In this document: positions 841-59,341 of the stretch, piece by piece
Position numbering within the stretch: the first letter of the stretch is position 1
How the letters are laid out: every line of letters begins with the position of its first letter
Assembly: GCA_004431415.1 (NCBI GenBank)
Contig: QPMI01000542.1
Location: 62,001-126,000, forward strand
Length of the DNA stretch: 64,000 bases
DNA from: Cyanophora paradoxa CCMP329
Taxonomy: Eukaryota; Plantae; Glaucophyta
Direction of reading: 5' to 3'
Notes under the pieces: generated by a model
Told to the model about the DNA's origin: nothing
Databases searched by the model: none
The model's input: the letters and a program-made list of their open reading frames with translations, nothing else
Made by a program: the position numbers and the translations under genes

Positions 841-1003
841 AACAACTATATTAAAATATTAGACGGGATTTACATATGCATGCCCCGCCGGGATTAACAA
901 GGGCGCCCCCCACGGGCCACGGTAGTCCCGCGGCCGAGGGGGAGGGGGAAGCCCGAAGGCCGCACGGGGTAGCCCACACCTGCACACGTTTGCGAGCGGA
1001 AGC

Positions 1004-34719: not shown

Positions 34720-35719
34720 CCAGGGGATCGGTGGGATCTCTTACCGCCGCCGGGCCGGGCCGCAGGCGGGACCGATGGCGCGGCGGCGCGTGGGACCGGG
34801 GCGCCGGGGCGAGCCGCACCTTCGCAGCGAAGGCGCAGCGGCTGCTCCCGGGGTCGTGCTCCGGCGCGGTCAGGCGAGGGGTGAAGCTCCCCCCGTACCC
34901 CCCGTACCCCCCCAGCTCGCAGGCGGCGTGGGCGTCGGGGCGCCCTCCGGAGCCCGCTGGCAATCGCACTCGCCTACGCCCTCGGAGGCGCCGTCGGTCA
35001 ACGGGTGGCTCCCGAGCGCGCCGGGGGCGACCCCGTCCGTCTCCCCTCCCCCCCTCCACGGCGGCTGGCGCCTCCCGCCCTCCTCCGTGCCGCGCTCGGC
35101 GGCGGCGCCTATCCCGCGGAGGGCGTCGGCCAACGGGGCTGCCTCGCGGGCGGCCGCGTGCTCGCCGCCGGACCTGACGCCGCCGGCCTCGTGGGGCGGG
35201 CCGGGGACGGCGGCGGACGGCCTCGCGGCGGCGCTGGAGGCGGCCGGCCCGCGCGCCTTCTCGCCCGTCGACCTCTCCCCGCGGGGCGACCCCGGCGGCC
35301 GCCCGTCGATCGGGGAGGCGCTCTCGGCGATCTCGCCGCGGCGCCTGCCGCTCGCGTCGCCGCCGGCGCCCGACGTGAGCGCGCTGCACGCGTGCCTCGC
35401 CCAGCTGGAGGGCATCGCGCCGGCGCCGGCGCCCCGCGCGCCCCGCGTGGCGCCCTTCAAGGAGGCGCCCTCGCCGGCGCCGGCGGCCTCGCCGGGCCTC
35501 TCGGCCTCGCCCTTCCTTTCGGCGTCGGAGGAGGAGCGGCGCGCGCCCTCGAGCGGCGGCGCCGGCGGCCCGTCGACGTCGGGCGGCGAGGAGGAGAGCC
35601 TCCGCGCCGGCTCCGCCTTCGCCCCGGCCGCGGAGGAGGGCGAGGGCGACGAGGCCGCCCCGGCGCCCGCCGCGCCCCCCAGCAGGGCCGCCCGCCGCAA
35701 GAAGAAGAAGGGCCAGTGA
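34720..35719 (+). CDS. Chimeric partner gene (5' partner sequence plus 3' end copied from the 4.1-4.9 kb gene)
   Basis: From ~34937 the sequence is a near-identical inverted copy of 4133-4915 and ends RRKKKKGQ*. Start uncertain. Confidence 0.5.
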
Positions 35720-36001
35720 TAGGTAGCCCCTCCTCTTCGCGAACGCTTCTTTCCTAGCCTTAGCTAGCTAGTTGTGGATCCCTGTGATGCCCGCATCGTT
35801 TCGTTCCTGGGTGTACAGATCGACCTCTCTATCCTGCTTGCTATGCTTAATAACTTCGCTTTCAAAACATCGCCCTCGGCCTCGCCGGGCCTCTCGGCCT
35901 CGCCCTTAGCTTCCTGTCATTGTTTCACTAGCACTCGAGCTCGTTCAAACCAATTTTCCTTGCTGTAAATTGCAGGCTTCGTTCTTCACAAAATGTGAGT
36001 G

Positions 36002-36007
36002 GCTAGC
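36002..36007. repeat. Left target-site duplication GCTAGC
   Basis: GCTAGC flanks both element ends. It occurs once at the empty paralogous sites (...GTGAGTG-GCTAGC-TTCATG at ~53371 and ~59238). Confidence 0.95.
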
Positions 36008-36440
36008 AAAAAATGAGAGTACCCCCATCAGGGTGGGCCCGCCCTCTTTGCCACCCTCACCCCTCCAAAACCACCCCATCCCACCCACTCCAGCGCCTTC
36101 CCAGCCCTCATTCTTTCCCACTCTCTCGCTACGTCTACCGCCCTTCTCTCCCTCTGGTCTACCTCCCCTTCCATCCAGCAACCGCTAGGTAGTATCTAAC
36201 GTCTACTCCAATCGATCTTGCAAAAGATATAGCAGTGATTTGAGACGGGCCCCCAACGCGACGGTCTGCAGAGATAGCTTAATCAGCAGCTAGGCGTTAA
36301 TACTGTGTTCTTCCTATCTAAATAGCGGAGAGGTTTCCAGGTTCTAGCTAGACGATAAAACTATATAATCGAAGCTGATTGCATATGCGAGTTTAGGTTC
36401 TAGTTAGTCAATAATACTGTGTGGATGATAGCGCCGGTCT
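36008..36440 (+). repeat. Left terminal inverted repeat (433 bp)
   Basis: AAAAAATGAGAGTACCCCC...GCGCCGGTCT is the reverse complement of 47086-47518. No mismatch seen by eye. Confidence 0.96.
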
Positions 36441-36564
36441 TTGAATCACCAACGGGTCACCGCAATTGAGGTTTCTCTTATTTTGTCTTAAAGAGATCCC
36501 TTTCCAATATTGCTATGTGAAGTTGCGTTTGGAACAAGCAAAAAAATTGTGATATATACTTCCA

Positions 36565-39500
36565 ATGGACGTTACCCAGAATAATGCAGCGACTCGGCGC
36601 TTCCGGTTGGCCAGAATCAAAGACCAGATCGAAGCGCTCGCGATATCATTGTATAATCGACGCGTCATACATTGGGCCTTCAAAAATAAATTGATTAGAA
36701 TTTCAGCACAAGGCTCGAGAACACGTTTTGCAACGTTGGAAAAGTACGCTTCACTCTTGAACGAACTTGCAAGACTTCCTAGGTCAGCGCGTCCTGTGTC
36801 AGGTCGTCGACTAGAGCTAGCGATTGCTGAGGGCCAGGCCGACATTGTTCGAGGGTTCTCAGAATTACCTGAGGTTGACGGTGGAGATGATGTTCAAATC
36901 AATGACAGCAATACGACTACAGCGCTTGACGGGCGATATGCGGAGTGGAAATACCAATTGCCTCGCGGTTCTGGCCGCGTAACCTCGATGCAAGCCCGAT
37001 TTGAGAACAACGAACTTTTCAAACAGAACGCAATAGCATTCGTTAGCGCCCAGGTAAATCTTGCAGAGGCGGTAAGAATGGGCATTGCACTACAAATCTC
37101 TGGATTAGCGGTATACAGAAAGCCAGAGACTGATACAACAATTGCAATCATTATTGAGCATCGCCGTTTCGATCGCATCGAGCCAGGGGCAAGCATCGAG
37201 ACTGCTCTGCGCTCACAGCTGGAAGAACTAGACATTCTTGCGACAGAGAAAAGCAGGGATTCCTCAGTTTTCGACACATGGATACATCTGGTCTTTAAAA
37301 CTGTGCGATACTTCCGCCGCATGGGTGGTCGTGGACGTAGGTTCACACTCCCGCGGTGGCTTGTGGAGAAGCAGGCACTCATCAATATCGATGCTCCGAA
37401 CAATGAATGCTTCAAGTATGCTGTACTTGCAGCTCAGCACGCGCTACGACCGGGCCAGGATTCACGTAGTGCTTGTCATTATCGACCGTATGAGAGCTCT
37501 TTGGACTGCACTATGCTCACATTTCCCACCCGCTAGATTCAAAGGTTTTCAAAAAGTTCGAGCAGGCTAACAACGTAAACCTATGTATTTATACGACAGC
37601 ATTAGATGAACAGGACATTGTACCAATCCATATCAGCGCAGCAAAAGACGCAATACCAATCTTGTATGTACCTGCAGGCAGCGACAATGATGTAGGGCAT
37701 TATCTCTGGATCAAGAACATCTCACGTCTGTTTGGAAAACATGATTCTCCCGCCAAACACTATTGTCTTGCGTGTCAAACAGGTTTTAGCTCAGGTGCTG
37801 CGTTTGAAAATCATCTTAAATATGACCGTTGCCTCGATCGAGACGAGCATGCGAGAGATGTTCTGCCGAAAAAAGGAGCCCACATCCAGAAGTTTATTAA
37901 CTATGAGTACTCAATCCGGCAACGTCTGGTCGGATATGCTGATTCAGAGACGATTACAATGCCAATTCCCTGCATTAGTGGAAAGACCGAAAAGAAAGGT
38001 GTGCATGTGATTGCTTCAGTCGGCTGTCTGGTTGTATCTTCGAAAGGTGAACAGTTTTGTTTCAAATACATGGGTTCGGAGAGCGAGGACTGCGCTGAGA
38101 AGTTCGTGCAATGGTTGGACGAAATGGAACCACAATTTCGAGAGCTCTTGCGAGAGACTGCACCAATCCAGATTACTCAGGAAGAGGAGCAGCGTTTTCA
38201 AACGACGACCGAGTGCTACATGTGCAAGAACACGTTCAAGGATGCGAAAGACAAGCACCGTGATCACTGCCACGAATCTGGCCGATATTTCGGGGCTGCC
38301 TGCAGAGCTTGCAATCGACGCCGCGCGAAATCAGCTGCTGTTCCATTATTCTGGCACAACGGTCGAGGATTTGACTTCCACCTGCTCGTACGTGCTCTAG
38401 CATCTGGCTATAACCGTCGTTTAGCAGCTTGGAAGGAGTTTCAAGCGCATGTCGAAAGCGAGTTTGAAAGCAAGTACGGTGGACGTGAGATGACCCAGAG
38501 CAGAAAAAGAAGGCGAAGAAGGGGCTCGAACGCCGACTCCGCCCACAGAGTCTCCTTTCGATAAAATTCGATCAGGTCTTTCAGAATAGCGAGCGAATTT
38601 CGCAGTTCAAGTATGGAATTTACGTTCTACGGGACTCGGCTCAGCACTTGAATGCGAGCTTGGACGACCTTGCAAAGGCTCTGCCCGCGGAAAAGAAGAA
38701 GATCACGCGCTCGCTGTATCTGGACGAGACTCGGTTCAAGCTGATGACTAGCAAAGGGATTTACCCTTATGATTACATGACGAGCTGGGCTCGCTTTCAG
38801 GAGTCTAAACTGCCTGCACGTCGTTATTTCAAAAATCAGCTTAAACAGAAGAAATGCACGAAAGATGAGTACGCACATGCGAAGGCTGTTTGGCGAGAGC
38901 TCGGCTGCAGAACGCTATCAGGCTATACAATGGAGTATATGATGACAGATATCGCGTTACTAGCTGACGTGTTTGAAAACTATCGTGATACGTGTATTGA
39001 AACGTATGGCCTAGATCCTAGCTATTTTATGTCATCGCCGGGATTTGCTTGGCAGGCAGCACTTAAGCACACTGGAGTGAAGCTCGAGCTCTTTCACGAG
39101 GGGCAGCAGGATATGCACAGATTTATAGAATCCGGGATCAGGGGCGGAATCTCAATGATCTCAAAACGCTACGCACGAGCTGAGAACAAATATTTGAGCA
39201 TAAAGTTCAACAAGTACACCCACGCTGTTGAGCCTACAGTCTCACAGTCTACATGCATGTCTAACTACTACCGAACACACAAGGAATCGTGGCTCATGTA
39301 CCTCGATGCAAACAACTTGTACGGCGTCGCAATGAAGCGCAAGCTACCCACAGGAGATTTCCGCTGGATAAACTAGATCAAGACGTTGATGTAATGCAGT
39401 ACGTTGCAAGCCTTGACGCGGATGGAGCTCGTGGCTATGCTCTCGAAGTCGATATGTACATGCCTGAGCATCTCCATGACGAGTTCTCAGACTATCCGCT

Positions 39501-40620
39501 GGCCCCTGAACGGATGTGTGTGTCCAAGGAACACCTATCAAAGCGACAACAGGATATGATTAACGACGAGAAGCTTACCTCAGTTGAACGAACTCCAAAG
39601 CTCGTTCCGAATCTGCTTCCAAAAAAGAATTATGTTGTTGATGGACGCTTGCTTCAGCTCTATACGTCACTGGGAATGATAGTAACCAACATCCATCGGG
39701 TCCTATCGTACGAACAAAGCGCATGGCTAGGGCGTTTCATAGATCTCAATACTCAAAAACGTAAAGAATCGCAGTTCACATACCAGAAGGACCTTTACAA
39801 GTTGATGAACAACAGTGTCTTCGGAAAGACGATGGAGAACGTGAGAAAGCACTGCTTTTCAGAGCTTGTGACTTCGGGAGACCGTCTGGTGAAGATCAAC
39901 AGCGAACCAAATCGGTTGAAGCAGGTGGTGATGTACGAAGAGAACCTTGTATTCGTTTCCAAGCGCAAAAGTGAGTACAATCTGAACAAACCTATCTACT
40001 GCGGGTTCGTCATCCTCGAACTTTCCAAGCTGCACATGTACCGCTTTTACTACCAGGTGCTCAAGCCGCTTTGGGGCCAGCGGCTGACACTATTAGGTAC
40101 GGATACTGACAGTCTCATCATCGAGGTTCGCACCAAAGATATCTATGCTGATTTACGCTCAATCAAGCATGAGCTGGATGTTAGCGACTACCCAGAGACA
40201 CATCGATTCTTCGATGGCATGACAGCCGATGAGGTTCGAGCTCTACGATCGATGGGGAAAACTCCGGGATTATTCAAGGATGAGCTCCATGGTCTGCAAA
40301 TGACAGAGTGGATCGCTAACCGGCCGAAATCTTATTATTATTCGCGTGAAGATTCCACGGACAAGCAGGTATGCAAGGGTATTCAAAAGACGTACTACAA
40401 CAGACTCACAAGGGATGTATTCTTCCGGTGCGTCTGTCCTAAAGAGGGAGAAAAGCAATCGTATGACATCAAAGGAATTCTCGGTTTCCGCTCGAAACTA
40501 CATGAGATTTATTTACAACGAACCTCGCGTCAGGCTCTTCATCCCCTTGATACCAAACGCTTCCTCGAGACTGACGGGATCAACACCCGAGCGATTGGAC
40601 ATTATAAAAATCGCGCCTGA
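36565..40620 (+). CDS. polB: Protein-primed family B DNA polymerase polyprotein (~1350 aa), split here by three -1 frameshifts
   Basis: Exo I DSET, Exo II HNGRGFD, Exo III YMMTD; SKGIYPYDY; Pol A YLDANNLYG, Pol B KLMNNSVFGKT, Pol C TDTDS. Four ORFs join into one frame by adding one base at CCC 37529-31, CCC 38494-96 and AAA 39370-72. Confidence 0.95.
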
Positions 40621-40629
40621 TTTACAAAG

Positions 40630-41532
40630 ATGTACCAGATTACTGCGCCACCGGGTGTCTGGCAAATTGACGTATTATTTATTGGGAGATTTCGCTTGTT
40701 TGCAGGAGTCGAGATTGCAACCCGCTTTGCTGTCGTGCGCAAGCTCGAGACCTTTAAGCAGCTTCCAAAAATGATTGCACAGCTGCCTGGAATCTGGGGT
40801 TTTTCTGGAGACAACGGTTTTAACACAGCAGCGATTCGGGCAATGGCTGCAGAGAACTCGTTAAAAATGCACACTGATGTGGCTAAGGATGATCACATTT
40901 CAAAAGGAAACAAGCTGGGAATTATTGACAGGTTTGCGCGGACATTGCGAGCGTTGATCCAGGCAGACACCGAAGCACGTGGCTCACCGCATTTTCTGTC
41001 ACGTTTGCCGGCAATTATTAAGGCGTACAATGAAACAGCCCACAGCTCTTTCGGCGGAGAGCACTCCCCAACATGGATGCGGGAAAACTCGCAGGTTGCC
41101 GAGCAGTTGCATCAAGTGCGACAGCGACAGAACGATATCGAACGAGAGAATGCTAACTTGCCTAGACCAGGAACCGAAGTGCAAGTCCTGGAGCCGAAGC
41201 CAAGCGTGTTTGCAAAGGGTGTGGCGAAACCAAGCAAAGAGACGTATGTTGTTGCTGGCGCTGATAGAAATCGCATAAGGCTTATCACTAAACAAGGCGT
41301 GGAGATTTCTAGACGCGTTAAACCATCGGAAATACGTCAGCCGCGTGAGCGTGCGCCTCAAACACGAATCGAAAAAGAAGAAGCGCAAATGCGACAGCAG
41401 AGGCAATTGAGGCGTGAGGGATTGATCGAAATGAAAAAATACAGCGGCCAGAGCCGGCAGTATCGAGAGCTCAAGAAGCTCGAAGTGGATGCTGAGCCTA
41501 AGCTGCGAGCGGGCGCTAAGCCACTTCTTTAG
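40630..41532 (+). CDS. Retroviral-like (rve) integrase, Polinton type
   Basis: GVWQID (D1), SGDNG (D2), GIIDRFARTL (third acidic residue), YNETAHSS. Consistent with the 6 bp TSD. Confidence 0.88.
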   Translation: MYQITAPPGVWQIDVLFIGRFRLFAGVEIATRFAVVRKLETFKQLPKMIAQLPGIWGFSGDNGFNTAAIRAMAAENSLKMHTDVAKDDHISKGNKLGIIDRFARTLRALIQADTEARGSPHFLSRLPAIIKAYNETAHSSFGGEHSPTWMRENSQVAEQLHQVRQRQNDIERENANLPRPGTEVQVLEPKPSVFAKGVAKPSKETYVVAGADRNRIRLITKQGVEISRRVKPSEIRQPRERAPQTRIEKEEAQMRQQRQLRREGLIEMKKYSGQSRQYRELKKLEVDAEPKLRAGAKPLL

Positions 41533-41824
41533 CAAGGCATCTGCGTGCAATGTATGCTTTATGATATTCCCGGATCCGATCAGGATTCTCAACCCGATAC
41601 TTCGCTGTAATAGCAAGCTGTTTCAAACGGTATGTTTCATTTGTATGACGAAGCTTTCGATTACGCTCGGCATTTTTCCTTCTGCGTTCTGCTAGAATAT
41701 CTGGGGTAATCTCGATCGGTTTTGGTCCCTTCTTCTTCGGTTCATATGGCTCCATTGTCAACAGTCTCACTTTGGGCGGACGCCCACGACCACGCTTTAC
41801 AGCAGTACAATCTGCAGAACTCAT
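41516..41824 (-). CDS. Small basic DNA-binding protein with AT-hook (102 aa from first ATG)
   Basis: KRGRGRPPK AT-hook, second KKKGPKP motif, Arg/Lys-rich helix. Confidence 0.7.
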   Translation of the reverse strand: MSSADCTAVKRGRGRPPKVRLLTMEPYEPKKKGPKPIEITPDILAERRRKNAERNRKLRHTNETYRLKQLAITAKYRVENPDRIREYHKAYIARRCLAKEVA

Positions 41825-41901
41825 TATTCGCTTATCTCTCAATAATAAGAGGCATAAATCCTTTTAAGACAAATTAGCGCGACTTTTGGACCTTAAAGAT
41901 A

Positions 41902-42465
41902 ATGCAATCTGTAGATGTAACGAAAAAGAAGATGGAGGTCGTCATTTCTGATGTACCAGAGGGTGCTGCGTTGATTCCGTTAATGGGCATTCGCAATCGA
42001 CGCAAAGTCATCGTCGCCTACGCTCTTGTGTCACAGGATGATGCTGAGCGTGTGCTCGGGTTCCGCTGGAGTTTGAAAAAGGGATATGTCAGAGCCAAGA
42101 TCAATGGAAAAACCGTGTATTTGCATAATTTCATTGTTGGGAGACTTGAGAATGGGTTGACCGTTGATCATATTAATAATAACAAACTTGATAATAGACG
42201 CAAAAATTTGCGGCTTGCAACAGCTCGTCAGCAGAATCTTAACCGTGGTCAGCTGCGAAACAACACATCGGGTTTCATTGGTGTTTACTTCGATCAGCGA
42301 GATGGTAAATGGAAGGCAGAATATCATCTAAATGGCCGCAAAAAGACCATCGGTCGGTTTCAAACAGCAGAGGCTGCAGCTCATGCACGCGATGCATATG
42401 CCTTAGAACACACCAGCGAAGAGGACAAGCCATTCTTGCGGCTGAACTTCCCAGTTACCGTTTAA
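41902..42465 (+). CDS. HNH-AP2 homing-endonuclease-like protein
   Basis: HNH: TVDHINNNKLDNRRKNLR. AP2: NTSGFIGVYFDQRDGKWKAE...IGRFQTAEAAAHARDAYA...LNFP. Confidence 0.92.
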   Translation: MQSVDVTKKKMEVVISDVPEGAALIPLMGIRNRRKVIVAYALVSQDDAERVLGFRWSLKKGYVRAKINGKTVYLHNFIVGRLENGLTVDHINNNKLDNRRKNLRLATARQQNLNRGQLRNNTSGFIGVYFDQRDGKWKAEYHLNGRKKTIGRFQTAEAAAHARDAYALEHTSEEDKPFLRLNFPVTV

Positions 42466-42498
42466 ATGAACGTCTTAAATGGCGTCATTATTTTTTAA

Positions 42499-42759
42499 AT
42501 GGAACTCGAATTCGAAACGGTAGAGGAAGAGTTGGATCTTGAAAATCCATGGCCTGGTAGGACTCAACTCTCACCAAGTCACTGCATCAGCTTCGGCATT
42601 TTCAAGGGCGCAAGCTATCTGTGGATCGCATCAGCACGTCCAGAATATACCGCTTGGTTGCTCAGACAGTCTTGGCTACCGGCTTTTGATCGCGCTGCTT
42701 TTTTACGCGCACAAAGCGCAATAGAGCCGAAGTCGTTCCAGAAGCTTTGTACAGAATAG
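42499..42759 (+). CDS. Small orphan protein with FGxxKG...P.Y..WL motif (DUF3820/exonuclease X C-terminal-like)
   Basis: ISFGIFKGASYLWIASARPEYTAWL. AT-rich leader before the ATG. Overlaps the ATPase 3' end on the opposite strand. Confidence 0.5.
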   Translation: MELEFETVEEELDLENPWPGRTQLSPSHCISFGIFKGASYLWIASARPEYTAWLLRQSWLPAFDRAAFLRAQSAIEPKSFQKLCTE

Positions 42760-43364
42760 ACGCGGTCCGCGGTCGCGGCTTCATAAACAAGGACCTGAAA
42801 CGAATGATTCAATTCAACGAAAAGACGCATTAGATCTGCTCGAGTCGCTCCGCCATTGTATTCGTCAAAAACGCAGTTGAACTCTTTGACATTCGAGAGG
42901 ATCGACGAAAAGCATACATATTCGCAATTACGCCGAATCGTAGGACTGATTCCACAAAGACGTTGAGTGGTTATAAAAAGGCTGATGTTATAATGACGCC
43001 CACTAGTAAAAAGCTTTCGCATTAATCGGTCGCTGTGGACGTTCACAAGGTCATTATCGAGCAAATCATCTAGAACGATTGCAATCTTGCGCTCATCTTT
43101 CTTGCGTCGTCTTTCTTTTTGTCGCTCTAGAAGACGCTCAACCAAAACTGAATCCCATTCTTCCTGGATATTGCTTGAGTGAGTCGTGTCGTTCCACTGT
43201 TCTGTAAATGCTGTTGTGCTGAAGACGTAAATATCGTCTAGCTGCGGAGCTACTGCATTTAATACATGTTTAACGTAGGTGCTTTTGCCCGAGTTGGTGG
43301 GGCCGACAAACAAGAACCGTTTAGGCAGTTTTATTTCTGTAGGATCAAACAGTTTGATATCCAT
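42615..43364 (-). CDS. A32-like (FtsK/HerA) genome-packaging ATPase
   Basis: Walker A GPTNSGKS, Walker B IVLDD, GRHYNISLFITTQ, ISPTIRRN. The C-terminal ~45 aa may be out of frame (an LYKA-containing alternative frame exists). Confidence 0.95.
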   Translation of the reverse strand: MDIKLFDPTEIKLPKRFLFVGPTNSGKSTYVKHVLNAVAPQLDDIYVFSTTAFTEQWNDTTHSSNIQEEWDSVLVERLLERQKERRRKKDERKIAIVLDDLLDNDLVNVHSDRLMRKLFTSGRHYNISLFITTQRLCGISPTIRRNCEYVCFSSILSNVKEFNCVFDEYNGGATRADLMRLFVELNHSFQVLVYEAATADRVYSVQSFWNDFGSIALCARKKAARSKAGSQDCLSNQAVYSGRADAIHR

Positions 43365-44594
43365 CTAGAAGTTACTTACCTTTAGAGTTGACATTTGATA
43401 CGAGTTAATTACGAGAACATTGTGGCGCAGGACGTGGAAGTCGACAACTGCTGGCGCTGCGTTTGTGCAGCCGGTTACAGTTAGCGAGCAGTAGCTGCTG
43501 CTGGAATTAAAGAAGTCTGTGTAGCCGAGGACAGCGTTATGCAGTGAGTCTTTGCCAGATTTCGAAAGCACAATCCCATAGACATTTCCGTCCTCGAAGC
43601 CAAGGGCTGAATTACCAGTGGTTGCACCGCGGTATTGAGTTGGAATGTGATAGCACGATGATACAAACCCAGAGATTGGCTTATTGCTGATGTCGAGAGT
43701 TCGGTTGTTGTGCATGATCTCAAACGAATCGATTTTCAGCGCATTTCCGTTGCCAGCAAATGAATTGTGATTGCGAGTGCCCAGGTGATTCGCATTACGC
43801 ACTGTCATCAGGATCGCGTGCACAAGGCCGCTGACGTTGGCAAGGGAGATTTCGACTGCATTCCCCGCGTCGTCAGTCTTTAACTGCCTCGAGCGCTTTG
43901 AAATAATCTCGGTGAAAGGAATTCGAATACCACCGCTCTCGTTTGCAGATTTAAGCATAGACTCAGCCTCTTCGCTAGGGATATTCACGAACTGGCAAAC
44001 CAGGGCACAATCCGTTAGAGTTGCAACAGCACTAGCGACAGTTCCAACCACGCCAGCCGAACGGAAGTCAATTTCGACGGTTGGCATGTCAGCCAGTGCG
44101 AGCAGCGGGAAGTACGAATTGTCCCAGAGCTGGGAGGGGATCTTTAGTACGTACTCGCGACTCGCATCGAGAATCTCAAGAGCCGCGTCCTTTCCAAAGC
44201 CGTAGCTGCTAGCAAAAGCCTGGGCGGACGCAACGCTATTATCAATGAGCGCGTTCACAGTGAGCCAGTCTCCAGGGATCACCATCTTGAAGGATCCATG
44301 AACAAAGCGCACGTTTTCAATAAATGCACCAGCGCCATTAGGCAGCACCGAGGCGGCAGCTCCGCCAGCGACGCTGACCTTAAAGTATAGCGAGACACCG
44401 TTTAGAAGCTGCTTGCGCGGAAGGTCGAAAGCGGCAGTCTGCGCGAAGCCGTACGAGTTGCCTCGCGGACGGATCGTTTCAAGGAAAGGCTTGAACTTGG
44501 GGCTGACACCGACAGTGAGACCTGGGGATAAATAAAGTTCGCTTGAACCTTTGGTAGTGAGGAGCTCCTTTAGAGTTGTTCCTGCTTGCGCCAT
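43365..44594 (-). CDS. Major capsid protein (double jelly-roll), putative
   Basis: 409 aa, beta-strand-rich. N-terminal FAQTAAFDLPRKQLLNGVSLYFKV resembles the DJR capsid FG...F.IPR..LL...YL pattern; FPLLAL...VEIDF. Flanked by the ATPase and penton genes. Confidence 0.8.
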   Translation of the reverse strand: MAQAGTTLKELLTTKGSSELYLSPGLTVGVSPKFKPFLETIRPRGNSYGFAQTAAFDLPRKQLLNGVSLYFKVSVAGGAAASVLPNGAGAFIENVRFVHGSFKMVIPGDWLTVNALIDNSVASAQAFASSYGFGKDAALEILDASREYVLKIPSQLWDNSYFPLLALADMPTVEIDFRSAGVVGTVASAVATLTDCALVCQFVNIPSEEAESMLKSANESGGIRIPFTEIISKRSRQLKTDDAGNAVEISLANVSGLVHAILMTVRNANHLGTRNHNSFAGNGNALKIDSFEIMHNNRTLDISNKPISGFVSSCYHIPTQYRGATTGNSALGFEDGNVYGIVLSKSGKDSLHNAVLGYTDFFNSSSSYCSLTVTGCTNAAPAVVDFHVLRHNVLVINSYQMSTLKVSNF

Positions 44595-44638
44595 TTGCTA
44601 TTATAGACCAGAAAATTTTCATGCATATTGTTGTAAAG
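44595..44638. promoter_or_regulatory. 44 bp bidirectional intergenic region with central palindrome GAAAATTTTC
   Basis: Palindrome at 44611-44620, 16 and 18 nt from the divergent MCP and mCP ATGs. Function inferred. Confidence 0.5.
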
Positions 44639-45516
44639 ATGAAGCTCCGCGTAAATGTCGATTCTAGGGACCGGTTCGAAGGCACGTCCTCGAATTTCAA
44701 GATCAATCTCCCAAGGCCCCTCGTTAATGTAAAGTCGGTGCGAGTTGATTCGCTAGAACTGTTTCATAACATGTTCAACCTGTCCACACAAGCCGCAATT
44801 ATCACCGGCACCCTTGATCCCTCTGGCGTTGAGAAAACACGTGCCAACACTTTCAAGCCCGGAGTCTATACGCCAACCTCCCTTGCAAACTATCTAAGCA
44901 CGCTTCTTAAAACCCAGCAGTATAGTTACGGCGGAACTACTTATCAGCGCAAGTTCGTCGTTCAGTTCGAAGAGATCTCAATGCGGCTTAGGTTCCTGTG
45001 TGAAGCGGACTTTATTTTGAGCTTCACATCGGCCGAACTATCGAACCTGCTCGGGTTTGCGAAGACTCTCAGTGACCTTTCCAGTGAGCTTGACACACCT
45101 GAGACAATCGATGGCGTACAATATTCGTACGAGCTGTTCAGCGATATGCCAGTTGATCTACTTTATCACACGTATTTGTTCCTGTACATTCAGCAGATCA
45201 AAGGCCCGATCTTGACACTTAACCCCTATACAACGGGCTCGATCGCAAAGATTCACATCGACTCAAAATTCGGGAGCTCATCAAGTTCACATCTGAGGAT
45301 CGTGTTCCCGTCACAGGCTTCGATCGAAACGCTGAGCTGTCTGAACTTGACATATCGCTGCGCTATCATAATGGAACAGACGCTGTCACAAACACAGAGT
45401 TCTCGTTCGTGCTAGAGTTCGATATCGAGGATGTCTCTTACACGTCTGCTGCTGCTAAATCCGCAATTAAGAATGCAGCCAGCGAGTACGTCCCCTTCGA
45501 CAGATCGTTCGCATAA
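44639..45516 (+). CDS. Minor capsid protein (penton, single jelly-roll), one -1 frameshift
   Basis: N-terminal VDSRDR...SNFKINLPRPLVNVKSVRVDSLE. Adding one G at 45272-74 restores the typical C-terminus LSELDISLRYHNG...EFSFVLEF, ending at TAA 45514-16. Confidence 0.82.
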
Positions 45517-45542
45517 GTTTTTTCCCACTGCTTAGTTAAAAG

Positions 45543-46190
45543 ATGCCTCCGCGAAAGAAGTCGACAGACATGCAGTCTCGGCTGCGCACTCCGCAGCTTG
45601 AAGTCGCTTCCAGCCCTACTAAGAAGAATCACATCGAGTTCTTGAGTGGTGATACTGGTGCTTACCCGCTAGTCCGTCGCGCTGGTGGCGGTGAGGGTGC
45701 ATCCATCGATTACGCTCTTACCGCCGACGAGAACGCTATTCTTGATAAGATCCCGAATTCGCGGACTAAGAAGACCAAGACTAGCAAGCTAAAGGATACT
45801 GACGATGGGCCGCTGTACATCTCAGAGACGGCTAATCGTAGCAGGTATTTCATTAAAACTGTGACCGGTCTTAAGACAGTTTCAAAGAAGCGAGCTAGTG
45901 ACCTTATAGCTGGCATCGCGGCTGAGACTAAGATGGAAAACAAGATTTTAAATGAACCGATCACGAAGACAAAGATCGAGAAGAAGGTTGCCCCTCCTGC
46001 AGCTGCTGTTCCTGCCAAGACGATCGTTGCGATCCCTGAGGTCGATGAGAATGCTAGCGAGCTGCCTGTAGCTAACGCATCGATCCTGCGCATCGCCTCT
46101 AGCAGTGCTGATCCTGTCGGGCCGGCGATCGAGTACAAGCCAATGCTGAGCGGCTTCACTAAGCTAGGGCTCCGGCATCGCTGGGAGTGA
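45543..46190 (+). CDS. Orphan Lys-rich protein (215 aa), possible virion core / DNA-binding protein
   Basis: Clean ORF with AAAGATG start context shared with other element genes. Basic, low-complexity. No recognisable domain. Confidence 0.6.
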   Translation: MPPRKKSTDMQSRLRTPQLEVASSPTKKNHIEFLSGDTGAYPLVRRAGGGEGASIDYALTADENAILDKIPNSRTKKTKTSKLKDTDDGPLYISETANRSRYFIKTVTGLKTVSKKRASDLIAGIAAETKMENKILNEPITKTKIEKKVAPPAAAVPAKTIVAIPEVDENASELPVANASILRIASSSADPVGPAIEYKPMLSGFTKLGLRHRWE

Positions 46191-46244
46191 CCGAGTGGCG
46201 CAGAGAAAGTCTTACCCGAAAAATGGTCGAATTACAGTAAGCTA

Positions 46245-46361
46245 GCATAAAAGTGAAGTATTAGTTTCTAAACTTCTATGCTGGCATAAAAGTGAAGTAT
46301 TAGTTTCTAAACTTCTATGCTGGCATAAAAGTGAAATATTAGTTTCTAAACTTCTATGCTG
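46245..46361. repeat. 3 x 39 bp tandem repeat
   Basis: GCATAAAAGTGAAGTATTAGTTTCTAAACTTCTATGCTG at 46245, 46284 and 46323. Confidence 0.95.
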
Positions 46362-46394
46362 GCAATGTCCAGAAGTATTAATATATATTAAGTA

Positions 46395-46600
46395 ACTTCT
46401 GGGCAATGCCCAAAGGTAATATCTATTCTTTTAATACTTCTGGGCAATGCCCAAAGGTAATATCTATTCTTTTAATACTTCTGGGCAATGCCCATAGGTG
46501 ATATCTATTCTTTTAATACTTCTGGGCAATGCCTATAGGTAATATCTATTCTTTTAATACTTCTGGGCAATGCCCATAGGTTATATCTATTTTTTAAAAA
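46395..46600. repeat. 5 x 41 bp tandem repeat containing the palindrome TGGGCA-A-TGCCCA
   Basis: ACTTCTGGGCAATGCCCAAAGGTAATATCTATTCTTTTAAT units at 46395, 46436, 46477, 46518 and 46559. Confidence 0.95.
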
Positions 46601-46619
46601 ACTTCGAGGCATGTCCACA

Positions 46620-47035
46620 AGTACTTTGGACAAATGTTCACGTCCAGAGGTCGCTAAGCGACTTTGGACAAAAGTTCACGTCCAAGATCCTCAACCCTGC
46701 TGGCACATCCCAACGCATGTTTTGCACAATCCAACCTCTAGTATAGCCTCGTTTGCACTATTGGAGATGTCTGCACGAGTTGCTAGCTGACTTGGGTGTC
46801 GTTCTGGAGTTCGTGACTTTGGACAAAAGTTCACGTCCAAGATCCTCAACCCTGCTGGCACATCCCAACGCATGTTTTGCACGATCCGACCTCTAGTATA
46901 GCCTCGTTTGCACTATAGGAGACGCCTGCACGAATTGCTAGTTTACTTGGGTGGCGTTTTGGAGTTCGTGACTTTGGACAAAAGTTCACGTCCAAGGTCG
47001 CCTAGTGACTTTGGACAAAAGTTCACGTCCAAGAT
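46620..47035. repeat. Five copies of a hairpin motif plus a 2 x 155 bp duplication
   Basis: ACTTTGGACAAAAGTTCACGTCCAAG (TTGGAC-N10-GTCCAA) at ~46623, 46661, 46816, 46971 and 47009. 46660-46814 is repeated at 46815-46969. Confidence 0.9.
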
Positions 47036-47085
47036 CTCCAAGCTTCTAGGCAACCTCACTCATAGGTGTCAGATCGCTGATTCAC

Positions 47086-47518
47086 AGACCGGCGCTATCA
47101 TCCACACAGTATTATTGACTAACTAGAACCTAAACTCGCATATGCAATCAGCTTCGATTATATAGTTTTATCGTCTAGCTAGAACCTGGAAACCTCTCCG
47201 CTATTTAGATAGGAAGAACACAGTATTAACGCCTAGCTGCTGATTAAGCTATCTCTGCAGACCGTCGCGTTGGGGGCCCGTCTCAAATCACTGCTATATC
47301 TTTTGCAAGATCGATTGGAGTAGACGTTAGATACTACCTAGCGGTTGCTGGATGGAAGGGGAGGTAGACCAGAGGGAGAGAAGGGCGGTAGACGTAGCGA
47401 GAGAGTGGGAAAGAATGAGGGCTGGGAAGGCGCTGGAGTGGGTGGGATGGGGTGGTTTTGGAGGGGTGAGGGTGGCAAAGAGGGCGGGCCCACCCTGATG
47501 GGGGTACTCTCATTTTTT
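47086..47518 (-). repeat. Right terminal inverted repeat (433 bp)
   Basis: Ends ...GGGGGTACTCTCATTTTTT. Confidence 0.96.
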
Positions 47519-47524
47519 GCTAGC
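47519..47524. repeat. Right target-site duplication GCTAGC
   Basis: Followed by TTCATGTTTTAAGG, as at the empty sites. Confidence 0.95.
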
Positions 47525-47621
47525 TTCATGTTTTAAGGAGTGCGAGTCACTGAGCGGCTGAACACCTTATCCTGTTCGAATTCGAATTCCTTGAACGCCT
47601 GAATGGATCCGAGGTGCTACA

Positions 47622-49916
47622 CTACCCGTAGAAAATCCGGGTGCGAAGGAGGGTGGCCTTCAGTTCTCTACGGCTGTCGTCGTCAAGCGCAGCGGCCGCC
47701 TTATCCGTGATTACAAGCCGCCGGAGATGCTTCAGGGAGGAGACGGCGACGAGTCCGCTCGCAGAGCCGAGGGGGAGCGGCGACTGGACGGTGAGCGTCT
47801 GGAGGATGGCACATCGGACGCAAGACGCTGCACATGCAGCAGAGGATCAGAGGCCACCTGCCACGTGCACAAGCAGATCGATCAATCAGTCAATATATAT
47901 TAGCTCACCTTCAGGATAGCGCCCGGGAGTACAAGTTCTGTGCCGCGATCGTTGCCAGTACCTTTACAATGCAGGGTGAGGGTCTTGAGACGCGTCCACT
48001 GCTTCAATGAGAGTTCGCTGAAGGCTACGAGAGTTCCAGGCTGTACGCCGAGAAAGAGATTCTGCTGAGAGAGTAAAGGGTGTGGCGAAAGCTGAGAGGG
48101 TGGAGGGCCAGGCCCTCACCGTGAGGGTGGGAAGGTTCGAAACTGCAGCAGCAAAAGATGTCAATCCGGCTTCGCTGCGATCATAGTAATTGAGAACAGC
48201 TGCCCGCAGGCTGCCAGCAAAGGACAGCAGCGACGACACGTCTGCCGGGCCTCTCATGGACATATTCAGGCAGATGTACTCGAGCTGCCGCATGCCGCTG
48301 AGGAAGCTGGTGTGCTTGTGCCATAATTGGACAGCGTACGCTGCGCATGCCGATCGCCAGAGAGACTGTGAGTTTAGATGCGCGCAAGCATCGTCAACAT
48401 AAATCAATTTTCTTACCGCGCAGAGAAGAGAGGCTGGAGAGCGGCTGCAGGTCCGCTTCGGAAGCTTTTGGCCAGGATCTCGAAACCACACCAGTACTGT
48501 TGTAAAATTCTGTTGTTGAAGTTGTGGATTGCAGTATTGGCGGGTTATTTATAGATGCCCCTTCTATCCAGCATAATATTGTTTTACACGTAACCGAGGG
48601 CCGCGGGCCAGAGACTCTGTTGTTTTTTCCTGTTATCGTTTTTTATCTATAAGACTATATCGAAAGATCTAGAAGATTATATTGTGAGTTTGGACTCACC
48701 TAGTTCGAGTTGCTCCAGCTGCAGGAAACCAGCGATCGAAGAGCAGACGGGAAGGAGAGGGCCATCAATAATGACGCCGCAACTCAGCCGCTTCAGCGTG
48801 CGGGCCAGCGGTGCGAGGGCCTGAAGAGTCTCAAGGGTCATCGGCAGGCTGTAGAATTGCGTCAGTCAGAAGTACGGATACGGGAGTCCGGTTTGCGCAT
48901 GCTCGGCCCACTTGTTGATTTCCAGAGCTTGCAGTGGAAGCGACGCTAAAGCTTGCAATGAGCCCTGCACAAACGTCCCCGTCACCCGCCGCGCATTCTG
49001 CTGAAGCCAATCGTCTGATTCTCCTTTCAGGAGCAGCTACAAGAGCAGTTAAAAACCAGGAAAATAGAAAATAGAGGATAGAGATAAATAAATGATTACC
49101 TGCTCAAGATTAGAAAAATGATGAAGCGCAGGAAGTATGCCCGGGGGATGTCGCCTTCAAACATGATGCTGAGCTGCGTGAGCTGCATTCCAAAAGCTTC
49201 AAACAGCTTCTTGAACGAATGACTGCTGAGCTCGCCGTTCGCCAGAAAAAGAGAGCGCAGAGCTTCCCGTTGCTTCTCTGGCTGATCGAGGAGCGCTTGA
49301 ACAGCTTTGTCACTGGCTGGCTGGATGCGAATGCGCTGCCAGAGGCTGGGCTGCTGAGCGAGGTGGCGGAAGCGGCGGGAGACGTGGCTGAGCTGCACGA
49401 GCTTGTCGAGATACTGATCGGTGCAGCGGCGGGAATCAGAGTAATCTCCGATTGACCCGATCTCGATGAAGATCCACTCCGACGCCTGGCCGATGATGCG
49501 CGTGACGAGGTCGTCTGGCAGCGCATCGAACGGGCTGCCGCCGGCCGCCATCGCCGCCGCCACGCGCGAAAGCGCCACCGCGGAGGCTGCGGATCGGGAA
49601 GAGATGTCAGAGGTTCAGGTTCGTCTTGCGAGAGAACTCGGATAAGCGCGAGCAGGCCTAAGCGGCCGCGGCCGCGGCAGCCGAGACTTCGAAATTCGAA
49701 TGCGCGCGCACCCTGCAGCGCTAGCTGGCCGGCCGCGGCCGACGCTGTGGCCGCGCTCGACGAAGACGAGTCCGCAGAGACGGTACCGCCTCCTGCTCAC
49801 GCAAGTCAGCGAAGGGCCACGCGGAGCTCGAAACGCGGCGGCGTGGCTCAAGCTCGCTGACCTGCCGCCGGCGCATCTCCCGCCCTCGCCCGCTTCGCCG
49901 CCCGCTCGCGTGCCAT
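47622..49916 (-). CDS. F-box / LRR-like protein, copy D
   Basis: [15 protein letters not shown]...[21 protein letters not shown]. Apparent frameshifts at G-runs (~49143, ~47801) relative to copy E. Confidence 0.78.
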
Positions 49917-50639
49917 CTGCCCCGAGAGCACTCCAGGTACGCACGAAAGCGTGGCCTGCGATGGTCGTCAGCGGCGCGCGGCAGTCGAGCGGGCGAGTCG
50001 GACGTTGCCAAAACAGCACACCTTCACCAAGCGAGCGCCTACTCGCACTCGCGTCGCGGCGCTCCCTCCGGGTAGCACGGTTGTGGCGGGACCAAGCTGG
50101 TCGTACGGGTACAGTGCCGAAGCGGACTGCGCAAGGGATCCCAGGATTCCCAGCTTCTCCTCGCGAGTCGCGACTCCCGCCGAACATGCGGTGCAGCGAA
50201 TCTCGATCGGAGCGCAGGCGATCGGCTCAAAACGTGCTCGCGTGGCGAATCGATAGCTGCGGCTCGTGCGGCCCAAGCGCGTTCTCCTCGCGACATCGGC
50301 AGGGGGCGGTCCCGGCCGCGGTAGCGGTCGGTGGGAAAAGGGCCTCGCGCTTCGTTCATGATCAGGTCCGGATGCGCGGCGTGCAGGGCGCCGCTTCCTG
50401 CCCTCGCCCACCTTCCCCGCAGACCCGGTGTTGACAGGACCGTCGTCAGGCAACCGCTCGCCAGGGGCGCAGCGGCTGCGAGGGCCGCCGGTTTCCGATC
50501 GGCGGCGCAGCGAGCTGCCAGCGCACCGCGCCGCCCGAGGCCTCCCCGCAGGTTTCACGCACCCGTGGCTCGGCAAGCCTCCCCGCTCCGGCTCCGCTAG
50601 CGAGCCGGCCGTCAGGCAAGCGGCCACCCGCCCGCTCCG

Positions 50640-53088
50640 CCCCAGGGGATCGGTGGGATCTCTCACCGCCCCGGGGCCGGGCCGCATGCGAGCTTAGGGC
50701 GCGGCGACGTAGCGCCCGGCTGGGGCCAGCGGCCGCTCGGACCACGGCGGTGGAGGCGAGGGGCGATGGCCGCGCGCGGGCCGACCCCGCCCCGGGCTCG
50801 TCCTCTCTGCACCGCGGCCGCGGTACCCGACCCGCCAGCGCGGCTCCTCCTCTGCCCCGCCGCGGCGCGGCCGCGGGACCCGACCACCAGCTCCACGCCG
50901 GCGCCCTCGCAGCCGCCCCTCGCGCCCCGCTCTGCCCCGCTGAAGGCTGTGCTGCTTCATGACCCCGCTCCCCCATGCCCTTGGCGGCCCCCCGTCCGCC
51001 GGCCGGCCCTTCCGGGCTGGGCCCTCCTCCCTTACCCCCCCCTCATCCTATCCTCGTACCCCCGCTCTCCGCCCGCCCTCCACGCCCGGCCCTCTGGCGC
51101 CCCCGCTGACCTCTTCCTCCCCTCGCAGGGTCGCTGGTGGGGCGGAGCCCGAGCAGCTGTACCCCCACCCTCCTCCCGAACTCGGAGGACCCCGGCATCA
51201 GCGGCCCGGCGGTTCCGCGCCCGCGTTCCCTTTGTGCCAGGCGCCAAGGCGTATCCCACCCAGGACTTCTCGTACCCCTACCTACCCACCTCCAGCATCC
51301 CTTCTTCCCCCCCCCCCTCCAGCTCGGTCGCGGTCAGGCGAGAGGCGAAGGTCGCGCAAGCTCCTTCTCCCGGGCCGGGCCCCTCCGGCCCCTCCCCTTG
51401 CGCGAAGGCGGAAAGCCCATGTATCCCCCATCACTTCCCCGTCCGCCGCCACCCTTTTTTAAGCTGCGCGAGGATGGTGCGCTCCCCGCTCTCCGCTACC
51501 CGCCCCCGCCCCCTCCCCCACCCCCCACCCCTTCCTAATCTCATCTAAGCTGACCCCCAAATCTGACCCCTCTTTGCGCGCCCCAGTTCTTCTCTGACCT
51601 CTCTTTCCCCTCGCAGAGGATCGCCGGTCCCGGAAAGCTGTACCCCGGCATAAACGGCTCCGAGCGGCGTACGTACACCCCTGCGCTCGATCTTGTCGGA
51701 GGGCGCCAGCGCCGGCGCCGGCCGCGCGCTGGCGTGGCCAGGGGGCGTCGGTGTACCCCCCCCCCTAGTGCCCTCGCCCGAACTCTCGAACGCACCACTC
51801 TGCATGAAGGCGGTGCGTACCCCTCCCCTCCACCATCCCCCCCCCCCCCGCTCCCTGCCCTCGTACCCCCGCTCTGCGCCCGCCTTCTACCCCGGCCCTC
51901 CGCTGATCTTCCTCCCCTTGCAGGGTCGCCAGTCCGCTGCGGCGGAGCTCGAGCAGCTGTACCCCCACCGTCCTCCCGACCTCGGAGGACCCGGCATCAG
52001 CAGCTCCGCGAGGCGTACCCCAGGCCCCGGGTGCCAGGTGCCGGCGTACCCCCCACCCCACCCAACGGCTTGGCGGCCCCCGTCCCCCTCCCGGCCCCTC
52101 CCGGGCTGGGTCCTCCTCCCTTACCCCTCTCCCCCCCCTCTCATCCTATCCTCGTACCCCGCTCTCCACCCGCCCTCTACTCCCCGCCCTCCGGCGCCTC
52201 CGCTGACCTCTTCCTCCCCTCGCAGGGTCGCTGGTGGGGCGGAGCCCGAGCAGCTGTACCCGTACCGTCCTCCCGAACTCGGAGGACCCCGGCATCAGCG
52301 GCTCCGCGAGGCGTACCCCAAGCACCAGGCGCCAGACACCGGTGTACCCCTGTACCCCCCACCCACACCCCGACTCTGGCGTACCCCCCCCCCACGCCGG
52401 GGCGTACACCACCCTCAGGGCTTCTGGTTCTCTCCGGCCTCCTCTGCTTCTCTCCTCCCCGCCCTCCTCTGTGCCGCGCTCGGCGGCGGCGCCTATCCCG
52501 CGGTGGGCGTCGGCCGACGGGGCCGCCTCGCGGGCGGCCGCGTGCTCGCCGCCGGACCTGACGCCGCCGGCCTCGTGGGGCGGGCCGGGGACGGCGGCGG
52601 ACGGCCTCGCGGCGGCGCTGGAGGCGGCCGACCCGCGCCTTCTCCCCGTCGACCTCTCCCCGCGGGGCGATCCGGCGCCCATCCCGCGGCTCTCGGCGAT
52701 CTCGCCGCGGCGCCTGCCGCTCGCGTCGCCGCCGGCGCCCGACGTGAGCGCGCTGCACGCGTGCCTCGCCCAGCTGGAGGGCATCGCGCCGGCGCCGGCG
52801 CCCCGCGCGCCCCGCGTGGCGCCCTTCAAGGAGGCGCCCTCGCCGGCGCCGGCGGCCTCGCCGGGCCTCTCGGCCTCGCCCTTCCTTTCGGCGTCGGAGG
52901 AGGAGCGGCGCGCGCCCTCGAGCGGCGGCGCCGGCGGCCCGTCGACGTCGGGCGGCGAGGAGGAGAGCCTCCGCGCCGGCTCCGCCTTCGCCCCGGCCGC
53001 GGAGGAGCTCGAGGGCGACGAGGCCGCCCCGGCGCCCGCCGCGCCCCCCAGCAGGGCCGCCCGCCGCAAGAAGAAGAAGGGCCAGTGA
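50640..53088 (+). CDS. Proline-rich partner gene with internally repeated exons (AEPEQLYP..PPELGGPRHQ), ending RRKKKKGQ
   Basis: Three repeats of CAG|GGTCGC...GAGCAGCTGTACCC at ~51130, ~51923 and ~52225, each preceded by a C-rich acceptor-like tract. Start uncertain. Confidence 0.45.
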
Positions 53089-53473
53089 TAGGTAGCCCCT
53101 CCTCTTCGCGAACGCTTCTTTCCTAGCCTTAGCTAGCTAGTTGTGGATCCCTGTGATGCCCGCATCGTTTCGTTCCTGGGTGTACAGATCGACCTCTCTA
53201 TCCTGCTTGCTATGCTTAATAACTTCGCTTTCAAAACATCGCCCTCGGCCTCGCCGGGCCTCTCGGCCTCGCCCTTAGCTTCCTGTCATTGTTTCACTAG
53301 CACTCGAGCTCGTTCAAACCAATTTTCCTTGCTGTAAATTGCAGGCTTCGTTCTTCACAAAATGTGAGTGGCTAGCTTCATGTTTTAAGGAGTGCGAGTC
53401 ACTGAGCGGCTGAACACCTTATCCTGTTCGAATTCGAATTCCTTGAACGCCTGAATGGATCCGAGGTGCTACA

Positions 53474-55770: not shown

Positions 55771-56499
55771 CTGCCCCGAGAGCACTCCAGGTACGCACGA
55801 AAGCGTGGCCTGCGATGGTCGTCAGCGGCGCGCGGCAGTCGAGCGGGCGAGTCGGACGTTGCCAAAACAGCACACCTTCACCAAGCGAGCGCCTACTCGC
55901 ACTCGCGTCGCGGCGCTCCCTCCGGGTAGCACGGTTGTGGCGGGACCAAGCTGGTCGTACGGGTACAGTGCCGAAGCGGACTGCGCAAGGGATCCCAGGA
56001 TTCCCAGCTTCTCCTCGCGAGTCGCGACTCCCGCCGAACATGCGGTGCAGCGAATCTCGATCGGAGCGCAGGCGATCGGCTCAAAACGTGCTCGCGTGGC
56101 GAATCGATAGCTGCGGCTCGTGCGGCCCAAGCGCGTTCTCCTCGCGACATCGGCAGGGGCGGTCCCGGCCGCGGTAGCGGTCGGTGGGAAAAGGGCCTCG
56201 CGCTTCGTTCATGATCAGGTCCGGATGCGCGGCGTGCAGGGCGCCGCTTCCTGCCCTCGCCCACCTTCCCCGCAGACCCGGTGTTGACAGGACCGTCGTC
56301 AGGCAACCGCTCGCCAGGGGCGCAGCGGCTGCGAGGGCCGCCGGTTTCCGATCGGCGGCGCAGCGAGCTGCCAGCGCACCGCGCCGCCCGAGGCCTCCCG
56401 CAGGTTTCACGCACCCGTGGCTCGGCAAGCCTCCCCGCTCCGGCTCCGCTAGCGAGCCGGCCGTCAGGCAAGCGGCCACCCGCCCGCTCCGCCCCAGGG

Positions 56500-58956: not shown

Positions 58957-59341
58957 TAGGTAGCCCCTCCTCTTCGCGAACGCTTCTTTCCTAGCCTTAG
59001 CTAGCTAGTTGTGGATCCCTGTGATGCCCGCATCGTTTCGTTCCTGGGTGTACAGATCGACCTCTCTATCCTGCTTGCTATGCTTAATAACTTCGCTTTC
59101 AAAACATCGCCCTCGGCCTCGCCGGGCCTCTCGGCCTCGCCCTTAGCTTCCTGTCATTGTTTCACTAGCACTCGAGCTCGTTCAAACCAATTTTCCTTGC
59201 TGTAAATTGCAGGCTTCGTTCTTCACAAAATGTGAGTGGCTAGCTTCATGTTTTAAGGAGTGCGAGTCACTGAGCGGCTGAACACCTTATCCTGTTCGAA
59301 TTCGAATTCCTTGAACGCCTGAATGGATCCGAGGTGCTACA

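Follow-up and report, generated by a model that had tools for sequence, protein, structure and literature searches.

The combination of the polymerase pPolB, an RVE integrase, the major (MCP) and minor (mCP) capsid proteins and a packaging ATPase has been published in 28 viruses that fall into at least eight clusters. Among cryptophyte Polinton-like viruses (PLVs), clusters C2 and C4 are reported to use rve, with a protease found only in C3, and rve integrases to duplicate 6 bp of the target (target-site duplication, TSD) (Bulzu 2025, PMC12220804). For the glaucophyte alga Cyanophora paradoxa, relatives of PolB+integrase viruses have been noted in Cyanophora contigs (Starrett 2021, PMC8502044), and Bellas 2023 (PMC10120064) counts 366 MCP hits, split into two clusters of 272 and 94 that are labelled 'new' and unnamed, lists a C. 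paradoxa MCP as confirmed in Table S2 and maps five C. paradoxa loci in Dataset S1. The present work concerns an element of 11,511 bp at positions 36008-47518 of a 64,000-nucleotide stretch of the C. paradoxa CCMP329 genome (contig QPMI01000542.1; the whole stretch is called the window, and all positions are counted along it). It is almost certainly an 11.5-kb Polinton-like provirus, as an earlier note made from the letters alone had proposed; the polymerase, the rve-type integrase, the ATPase of A32 type and the divergent double jelly-roll capsid agree with that proposal. The best overall explanation, a recent provirus in one unit of a host F-box gene array together with the cycle proposed below, is given a probability of about 0.8.

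Boundaries and age of the insertion

The ends of the element, the corresponding empty sites and the host gene that marks the array are as follows.

36002-36007, no strand: left TSD, GCTAGC (palindromic), an exact match to the right copy.
36008-36440, plus strand: left terminal inverted repeat (TIR), 433 bp, its end also set by other host flanks in short-read contigs.
47086-47518, minus strand: right TIR, 433 bp, inverted copy of the left TIR.
47519-47524, no strand: right TSD, GCTAGC.
53371-53376, no strand: empty paralogous target site 1.
59239-59244, no strand: empty paralogous target site 2.
49099-49554, minus strand: first exon of a host F-box gene (F-box-like, E 4.8e-7).

The earlier note had claimed identical 433-bp TIRs, an intact 6-bp TSD, two empty paralogous sites that confirm the boundaries, a GC content far under that of the host and an F-box tandem array as the surroundings, all of which were borne out. 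The two TIRs are identical at 433/433 bases, with mismatch beginning at position 434, and GCTAGC stands at both ends, an exact 6-mer match with a chance of about 2e-4. The two paralogous sites without the element, at 53371 and 59239, each carry a single GCTAGC with the same flanks as at the filled site, and GC is 47.7% within the element vs 65.8% in the remaining window. The window holds six F-box gene copies, 4/4 first exons checked match Pfam F-box-like, and three tandem units of about 5.86 kb lie downstream of the element.

At least half of the element's words are present in 19 of the 24 public short-read runs listed for one organism. In all four runs examined for the junctions, a contig covers the left one (35978-36031) with zero mismatches, and a loose contig end equals the reverse complement of 47525-47548 at the right one. 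The left-junction contigs hold 30 host-side and 24 element-side letters and hence fall under the 31+31 bridging rule, as expected because both sides are repeats. Additionally, the TIR is joined to other host flanks at 36007/36008 in short-read contigs, and the left end is therefore fixed independently. The depth of the left-junction contig (88, 40, 92 and 75 in the four runs) is about 1/4-1/3 that of the host unit (344, 110, 264 and 245), a ratio consistent with one filled unit out of three or four. All four junction-bearing runs also contain the empty site. Of these runs, possibly made from a single strain, three date from 2024 and one from 2012; with the junction already there in 2012, the insertion did not arise within the past decade.

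Comparison of the filled unit with the first empty one gives 0 substitutions over 4775 columns to the right of the element and 2 over the final 500 bases to its left. Because these units are near-identical, the insertion probably postdates the array's most recent round of duplication or homogenisation, and the youth that the earlier note had ascribed to it is thus probable. It is likely that the element inserted recently by means of its own rve-type integrase. Further, the predicted stop of the adjoining F-box gene lies near 47622, about 100 bp from the insertion. A spliced contig of the presumed RNA run X20, which is without the GT-AG intron 47828-47908 (minus strand), spans the empty site (47519-48061 and 35978-36001). 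Since this transcript crosses the empty site about 100 bases beyond the predicted F-box stop, the insertion point probably lies in the 3' untranslated region of one F-box copy.

Gene content, frame breaks and family copies

The genes of the element run in the following order.

36565-37536, plus strand: pPolB piece 1, holding the N-terminal region, presumably a terminal protein, and the vOTU Cys motif at 37402; aligns with residues 182-264 of the pPolB of locus L061.
37494-38564, plus strand: pPolB piece 2, with the vOTU His motif (37695), Exo I, an endonuclease-VII-like insert (Endonuclease_7, E 1.4e-7) and Exo II; aligns with L061 255-575.
38489-39376, plus strand: pPolB piece 3, with Exo III and Pol A (Pfam DNA_pol_B_2, E 6.4e-10).
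39265-40620, plus strand: pPolB piece 4, with Pol B and Pol C, supported by database relatives.
40630-41532, plus strand: rve-type integrase, triad D14-D61-D100, without the N-terminal domain of its relatives (Pfam rve, E 0.09; a relative, E 2.7e-5).
41516-41824, minus strand: small basic open reading frame (ORF) of the accessory region, 102 aa, with a GRGRP motif; no Pfam match.
41902-42465, plus strand: free-standing HNH-AP2 endonuclease (HNH_3, E 1.8e-10; AP2, E 6.7e-7, the AP2 match under its cut-off).
42499-42759, plus strand: small ORF, 86 aa, overlapping the 3' end of the ATPase gene on the opposite strand; no Pfam match.
42615-43364, minus strand: A32/FtsK-type packaging ATPase (Pox_A32, 42.4 bits, cut-off 22.8).
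43365-44594, minus strand: MCP, predicted double jelly-roll (DJR), from its model, fold matches and a published MCP row.
44621-45516, plus strand: minor capsid (penton) candidate with a frame break near 45271; adjoins the MCP gene; PBCV-1 P1v1, E 0.12.
45543-46190, plus strand: 215-aa Lys/Ala-rich ORF without cysteine, its length varying among copies.
46241-46996, no strand: non-coding tandem repeats, 39 bp x3.2, 41 bp x5.0 and 155 bp x2.2.

The full set of six exo/pol motifs is found across the pPolB pieces, and in a search with piece 4 a value of E<=1e-20 was reached by 6126 of the 7997 candidates, the best 120 at 37-42% identity. The vOTU Cys and His motifs of the N-terminal region align with an intact relative, the vOTU protease domain of pPolB being one defined in PMC11161782. 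In a tree of 141 sequences (the window, 120 top matches and 20 locus polymerases) over 379 columns, the window polymerase has a long branch and takes a basal position to the group of top matches; this is a biased sample without named references, and no classification is drawn from it. A read-through fusion of pPolB and the integrase, whose ORFs share a frame and are separated by a single TGA, was considered and rejected, the frames varying among relatives; the TGA TTT context is not known as a read-through motif.

The earlier note had credited the element with a full gene set, but this set is not intact in its assembled form: pPolB falls into four ORFs that overlap one another, with breaks near 37530, 38493 and 39365, and the penton candidate, itself unconfirmed, into two (break near 45271). 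We regard the four frameshifts as probable homopolymer errors of the assembly. Pieces 1-3 are collinear with the single unbroken pPolB of L061, in which the Cys and His are conserved, and the switch from piece 1 to piece 2 falls on adjacent residues of that relative. Short C/G runs adjoin 4/4 of the viral frame breaks, and at 38493, 39365 and 45271 high-depth contigs are one base off the window in 3/3 DNA runs. A comparison of two near-identical host units gives 12 substitutions vs 32 indel events, of which 31 fall within C/G runs, and the same frame-break artefact has been reported for such elements by Bellas 2023 (PMC10120064).

The MCP model (pLDDT 63, pTM 0.71, from an alignment of five sequences) matches the iridovirus and PBCV-1 capsids with a Foldseek E of 2e-17. 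It superposes on the PBCV-1 capsid with Z 30.6 and an rmsd of 2.8 over 341 residues; capsids of nucleocytoplasmic large DNA viruses (NCLDVs) in general give Z 22-31, vs 17.5 for Sputnik and 16.8 for mavirus. The best 14 rows are all viral DJR capsid or scaffold proteins, with no PLV or Polinton capsid among the fold matches listed, and such fold similarity is not a phylogeny. The protein is hence predicted with confidence to have the double jelly-roll fold, the check that the earlier note had proposed for it. At the sequence level it is an orphan: only 4 relatives at E<=0.001 were found among 1.84 billion representatives, one of them labelled Cyanophora paradoxa, a word-indexed search found 0 of 7996 candidates related, and comparison of the sequence with the PDB gave nothing useful. 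Its profile likewise found nothing in 82 integrase loci, mostly short (best E 0.12). For the penton candidate, PBCV-1 P1v1 at E 0.12 is the best sequence match in the PDB, the structural model is unusable (pLDDT 42, 0 Foldseek matches at E<=0.001) and the similarity to a penton-like ORF of locus L053 is not significant. The MCP and ATPase ORFs are uninterrupted. Single-protein scans of IMG/VR with pPolB, the ATPase, the penton candidate and P0003 gave no confirmed relative, in a search able to detect only close ones.

A Pfam search of 13 main and 34 alternative ORFs found no protease family, and the sole unassigned ORF of protease-like size, the 215-aa Lys/Ala-rich one, is not a cysteine protease because it has no cysteine. 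Thus, the element encodes no recognisable capsid-maturation (vUlp1/adenain) protease. The earlier note's claim that there is no protease accordingly stands for an adenain-type maturation enzyme, but not for the polymerase, which bears the vOTU Cys/His motifs. Mriya48, HUH endonuclease and VLTF likewise have no Pfam match among the element's ORFs.

The integrase has five relatives at 27-30% identity among 1285 phmmer candidates; these relatives all match Pfam rve weakly, under the curated cut-off. It shares D14, D61 and D100 with them, the third residue being Asp in 5/5 of these matches, where the usual integrase triad has Glu. Scans with the integrase alignment yielded 82 loci (L001-L082), and the D-D-D integrases appear to form a widespread subfamily. 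As the gene directly follows pPolB in many of these loci (23/82 are matched by pPolB piece 4) and an SF1-helicase replicase in L001, L002, L009 and L075, it is best read as a mobile module of PLV-type elements. A gap-free high-depth contig from a divergent subfamily crosses the spot at which the integrase is N-terminally short, and for this reason the shortness seems to be shared across the family. We infer from the exact TSD that the enzyme is functional. A literature search for D-D-D Polinton integrases found no pertinent paper, and PMC13215967 has no passage on the integrase or Cyanophora. Separately, Asp occupies the third position in 79/79 motif matches within the 82 loci, under a scan pattern that itself partly selects for Asp. 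Loci L001 and L002 are giant-virus-bin contigs in which the integrase comes after an HNH-SF1-helicase replicase and no gene was recognised as encoding a capsid; they are possibly PLV- or transpoviron-like passengers of the giant-virus bin.

The short reads further show that the element is one member of a multi-copy family in C. paradoxa. In run X1 its core contigs reach a depth of 1700-2200 vs 88 at the junction, which suggests tens of close copies, depth being a rough guide and not a copy number. The contigs also reveal divergent subfamilies and an accessory slot, and one joint (41925-42489) omits the HNH-AP2 gene in 2/3 DNA runs. This gene, which has phage relatives at 35-44%, had been part of the combination that the earlier note thought distinctive. 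It is instead an optional passenger, missing from some family copies, and was dropped as a lineage marker, an HNH_3-AP2 gene also being reported in a Symbiodinium PLV (PMC12220804). The integrase-ATPase interval 41283-42760 has an X1 contig depth of about 260 vs about 1700-2200 for the core genes, with several joints, and looks like a variable accessory slot. The GRGRP motif of the 102-aa ORF is one that we take to be AT-hook-like. One presumed RNA run contains three short pieces at a depth of about 2, in the polymerase and integrase, plus TIR pieces, and is uninformative on expression.

Three repeat arrays, with units of 39, 41 and 155 bp, occupy the non-coding stretch ahead of the right TIR; a regulatory or origin role is possible for this region, in which a sigma-70 promoter scan did no better than chance. 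A tRNA search of the element found none. In the surrounding host DNA, the tandem units of 47519-64000 differ almost solely by 1-2 base indels in C/G runs that break some host frames, so gene models built on this assembly will come out in pieces. Each tandem unit includes the end of a second, Pro/Ala-rich ORF without a Pfam match (52207-53088, plus strand; 35071-35719), an inverted copy of which, 91-94% alike, lies at 3981-4922. Another pair of tandem F-box paralogues occupies the plus strand at 12076-14421 and 16564-18887, the two being 83-88% alike. By eye, the regions 100-3270 and 6100-8740 presumably hold two acetyltransferase-like genes, a gene for a TLC-domain-like membrane protein and a calmodulin-like gene.

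Proposed life cycle and rival explanations

The provirus would normally be silent, probably CpG-methylated by analogy with other C. paradoxa viral genes, for which methylation is reported in PMC12344493. A free linear copy would be replicated by pPolB from both TIRs, priming on its fused (presumed) terminal protein, which the vOTU domain would cut off, as in the release model of PMC11161782. The ATPase would pack the genome into the double jelly-roll capsid with no need of a maturation protease, and the integrase would place new copies through a 6-bp staggered cut with little site preference. Dependence of virion production on a co-infecting giant virus, in the manner of virophages, is tentatively the likeliest single lifestyle, at a little under even odds. 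It draws on the giant-virus-dependent reactivation described for algal (Tetraselmis) PLVs (10.1101/2025.10.09.676808), and it ranks ahead of genome-only transposition, with an autonomous virus third.

A number of observations weigh against the overall reading of a recent and competent provirus, and for a copy frameshifted in its assembled form the earlier note's 'potentially active' is too strong. The element carries four frameshifts as assembled, of which that near 37530 is not among the 12 of 45 indel rows listed; the high-depth contigs represent other copies and may mask a single-copy variant, so that the breaks may be real here. The penton assignment is unconfirmed, resting on position and the E 0.12 match. 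The integrase matches Pfam rve at only E 0.09 and has about 11 residues before the first Asp motif, where 57/58 measurable relatives have 65-87. An unequal exchange with an empty copy would look like a young insertion. No MCP relative was found in IMG/VR viral contigs, by a single-protein scan that detects only close relatives, and no particle, episome or helper virus has been observed.

The rival that survives best, if still unlikely, holds that the family is a self-synthesizing transposon built on pPolB and the integrase, which spreads within the genome and makes no particles, its capsid module being a leftover. Tens of close copies in a single genome and the handful of MCP relatives in the protein databases are what such an element would present, as is the absence of close ones from viral contigs. 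However, the MCP and ATPase frames are unbroken, C. paradoxa keeps other MCP types as well as one or more additional full MCP subfamilies, and freshwater metagenomes carry the same replicase-then-integrase module.

It is improbable that the element is a nuclear virus able to act autonomously, with a lysogenic stage and in no need of a giant-virus helper. The complete pPolB with its exonuclease motifs would suit it and one PLV has been reported to replicate alone, but most PLVs tested so far rely on a giant virus, and this alga bears giant-virus endogenizations (PMC12344493), which make past infection by giant viruses likely.

That this particular copy is dead, its pPolB and penton frameshifts being real and its mobilisation left to other copies, is doubtful. 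Four breaks within about 9.6 kb of coding sequence invite the idea, and contig assemblies lose rare variants, so copy-specific indels may escape them. Set against this, the same C/G-run indels occur throughout near-identical host units, breaking the F-box gene in some units only, the TIRs and TSD are without mutation, and in-frame stops appear only downstream of the shifts.

Misassembly, or a contaminant contig joined into the array, could be imagined for a near-identical tandem array in an assembly rich in indel errors, but it is already largely refuted, to the point of being negligible, by the exact 6-bp duplication relative to the empty sites and by both junctions recurring in 4/4 independent short-read assemblies at about 1/4-1/3 of host-unit depth.

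The recent-provirus reading is therefore retained. Its boldest extension would see here an intact, near-minimal glaucophyte provirus, combining an animal-Polinton-like pPolB, a truncated D-D-D integrase and an orphan capsid of NCLDV-like fold, that is still integrating in Cyanophora and serves as a virophage-like defence against an as yet unisolated glaucophyte giant virus; taken as a whole, this is unlikely.

Comparison with known systems

The discovery value of the element is modest, since endogenous PLVs are known in many protists and its capsid is in a published table. The window MCP matches row 23 of Table S2 of PMC10120064 from residue 27 over about 370 aa, by eye; that row, given there with an HHpred match of 96.9% to an ascovirus MCP, differs at the N-terminus and so represents another copy or gene call. 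Besides the matching MCP, the same source has one paralogue and four more distant MCPs for C. paradoxa, and its Dataset S1 may already show the element's layout, while its main text, as examined, is silent on the element and on its size, ends and integrase. The main texts of two 2026 PLV classification preprints (10.64898/2026.06.19.733378 and 10.64898/2026.10.13.758929) do not mention Cyanophora, which their supplements may do, and the genome paper (PMC6704402) contains 0 occurrences of Maverick, Polinton or viral. Literature searches found no paper devoted to this element or to glaucophyte viruses. The new lineage suggested by the earlier note thus gives way in part: the capsid had been tabulated, and both Polinton-type genes beside divergent capsids and PLVs without a protease have precedent, but within the literature examined the lineage is unnamed and unplaced. 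The element is not a new kind of virus but a so far undescribed member of a known one.

Within that literature, its small size, the orphan capsid and the N-terminally short D-D-D integrase have not been described; the internally dated insertion is a further point of interest. For a capsid cluster that has no name, the element supplies a reference with exact boundaries in an alga that can be cultured, and the filled and empty sites side by side allow the insertion to be dated. The very small genome shows how small a gene set may suffice for such a virus and, if the family makes particles, it would provide a handle on glaucophyte viruses.

Compared with the Mavericks/Polintons (Polintoviricetes), the element shares a pPolB with vOTU, exonuclease and palm regions, an rve integrase, TIRs, a 6-bp TSD, a DJR MCP and an A32 ATPase, and its named best pPolB matches, at 39-42%, come from molluscs, echinoderms, cnidarians and a nemertean. 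It differs from them in being without a vUlp1/adenain protease, in its length of 11.5 kb vs 15-20 kb or more, in an MCP without sequence similarity to Polinton capsids and in a D-D-D integrase that has no N-terminal domain.

With the mavirus-like virophages (Virophaviricetes) it has in common pPolB and rve, TIRs and low-GC integration in a protist genome. Unlike them, it has neither a vUlp1 protease nor an S3H helicase, its pPolB keeps the exonuclease motifs where mavirus has lost most of that domain, and its capsid model fits PBCV-1 (Z 30.6) well above Sputnik and mavirus (Z 17.5 and 16.8).

The protist PLVs that carry both rve and pPolB (Bellas and Sommaruga 2021; Bulzu et al. 2025; the MELD viruses of Starrett 2021) resemble the element in having MCP, mCP (a candidate here) and ATPase without a protease, in the use of rve with TSDs, in replicases that can be exchanged, in HNH genes that are optional and in a GC content far below that of the host. 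The element is smaller than the 14-40 kb range given for them in PMC10120064 and PMC12220804, and its capsid cluster is unnamed. A reduced morphogenetic module without a protease, by which PMC12220804 characterises PLVs, is what the element possesses. Hence, lacking the protease by which the Polintoviricetes are delimited, it is best filed as an unplaced PLV with a Polinton-like manner of working.

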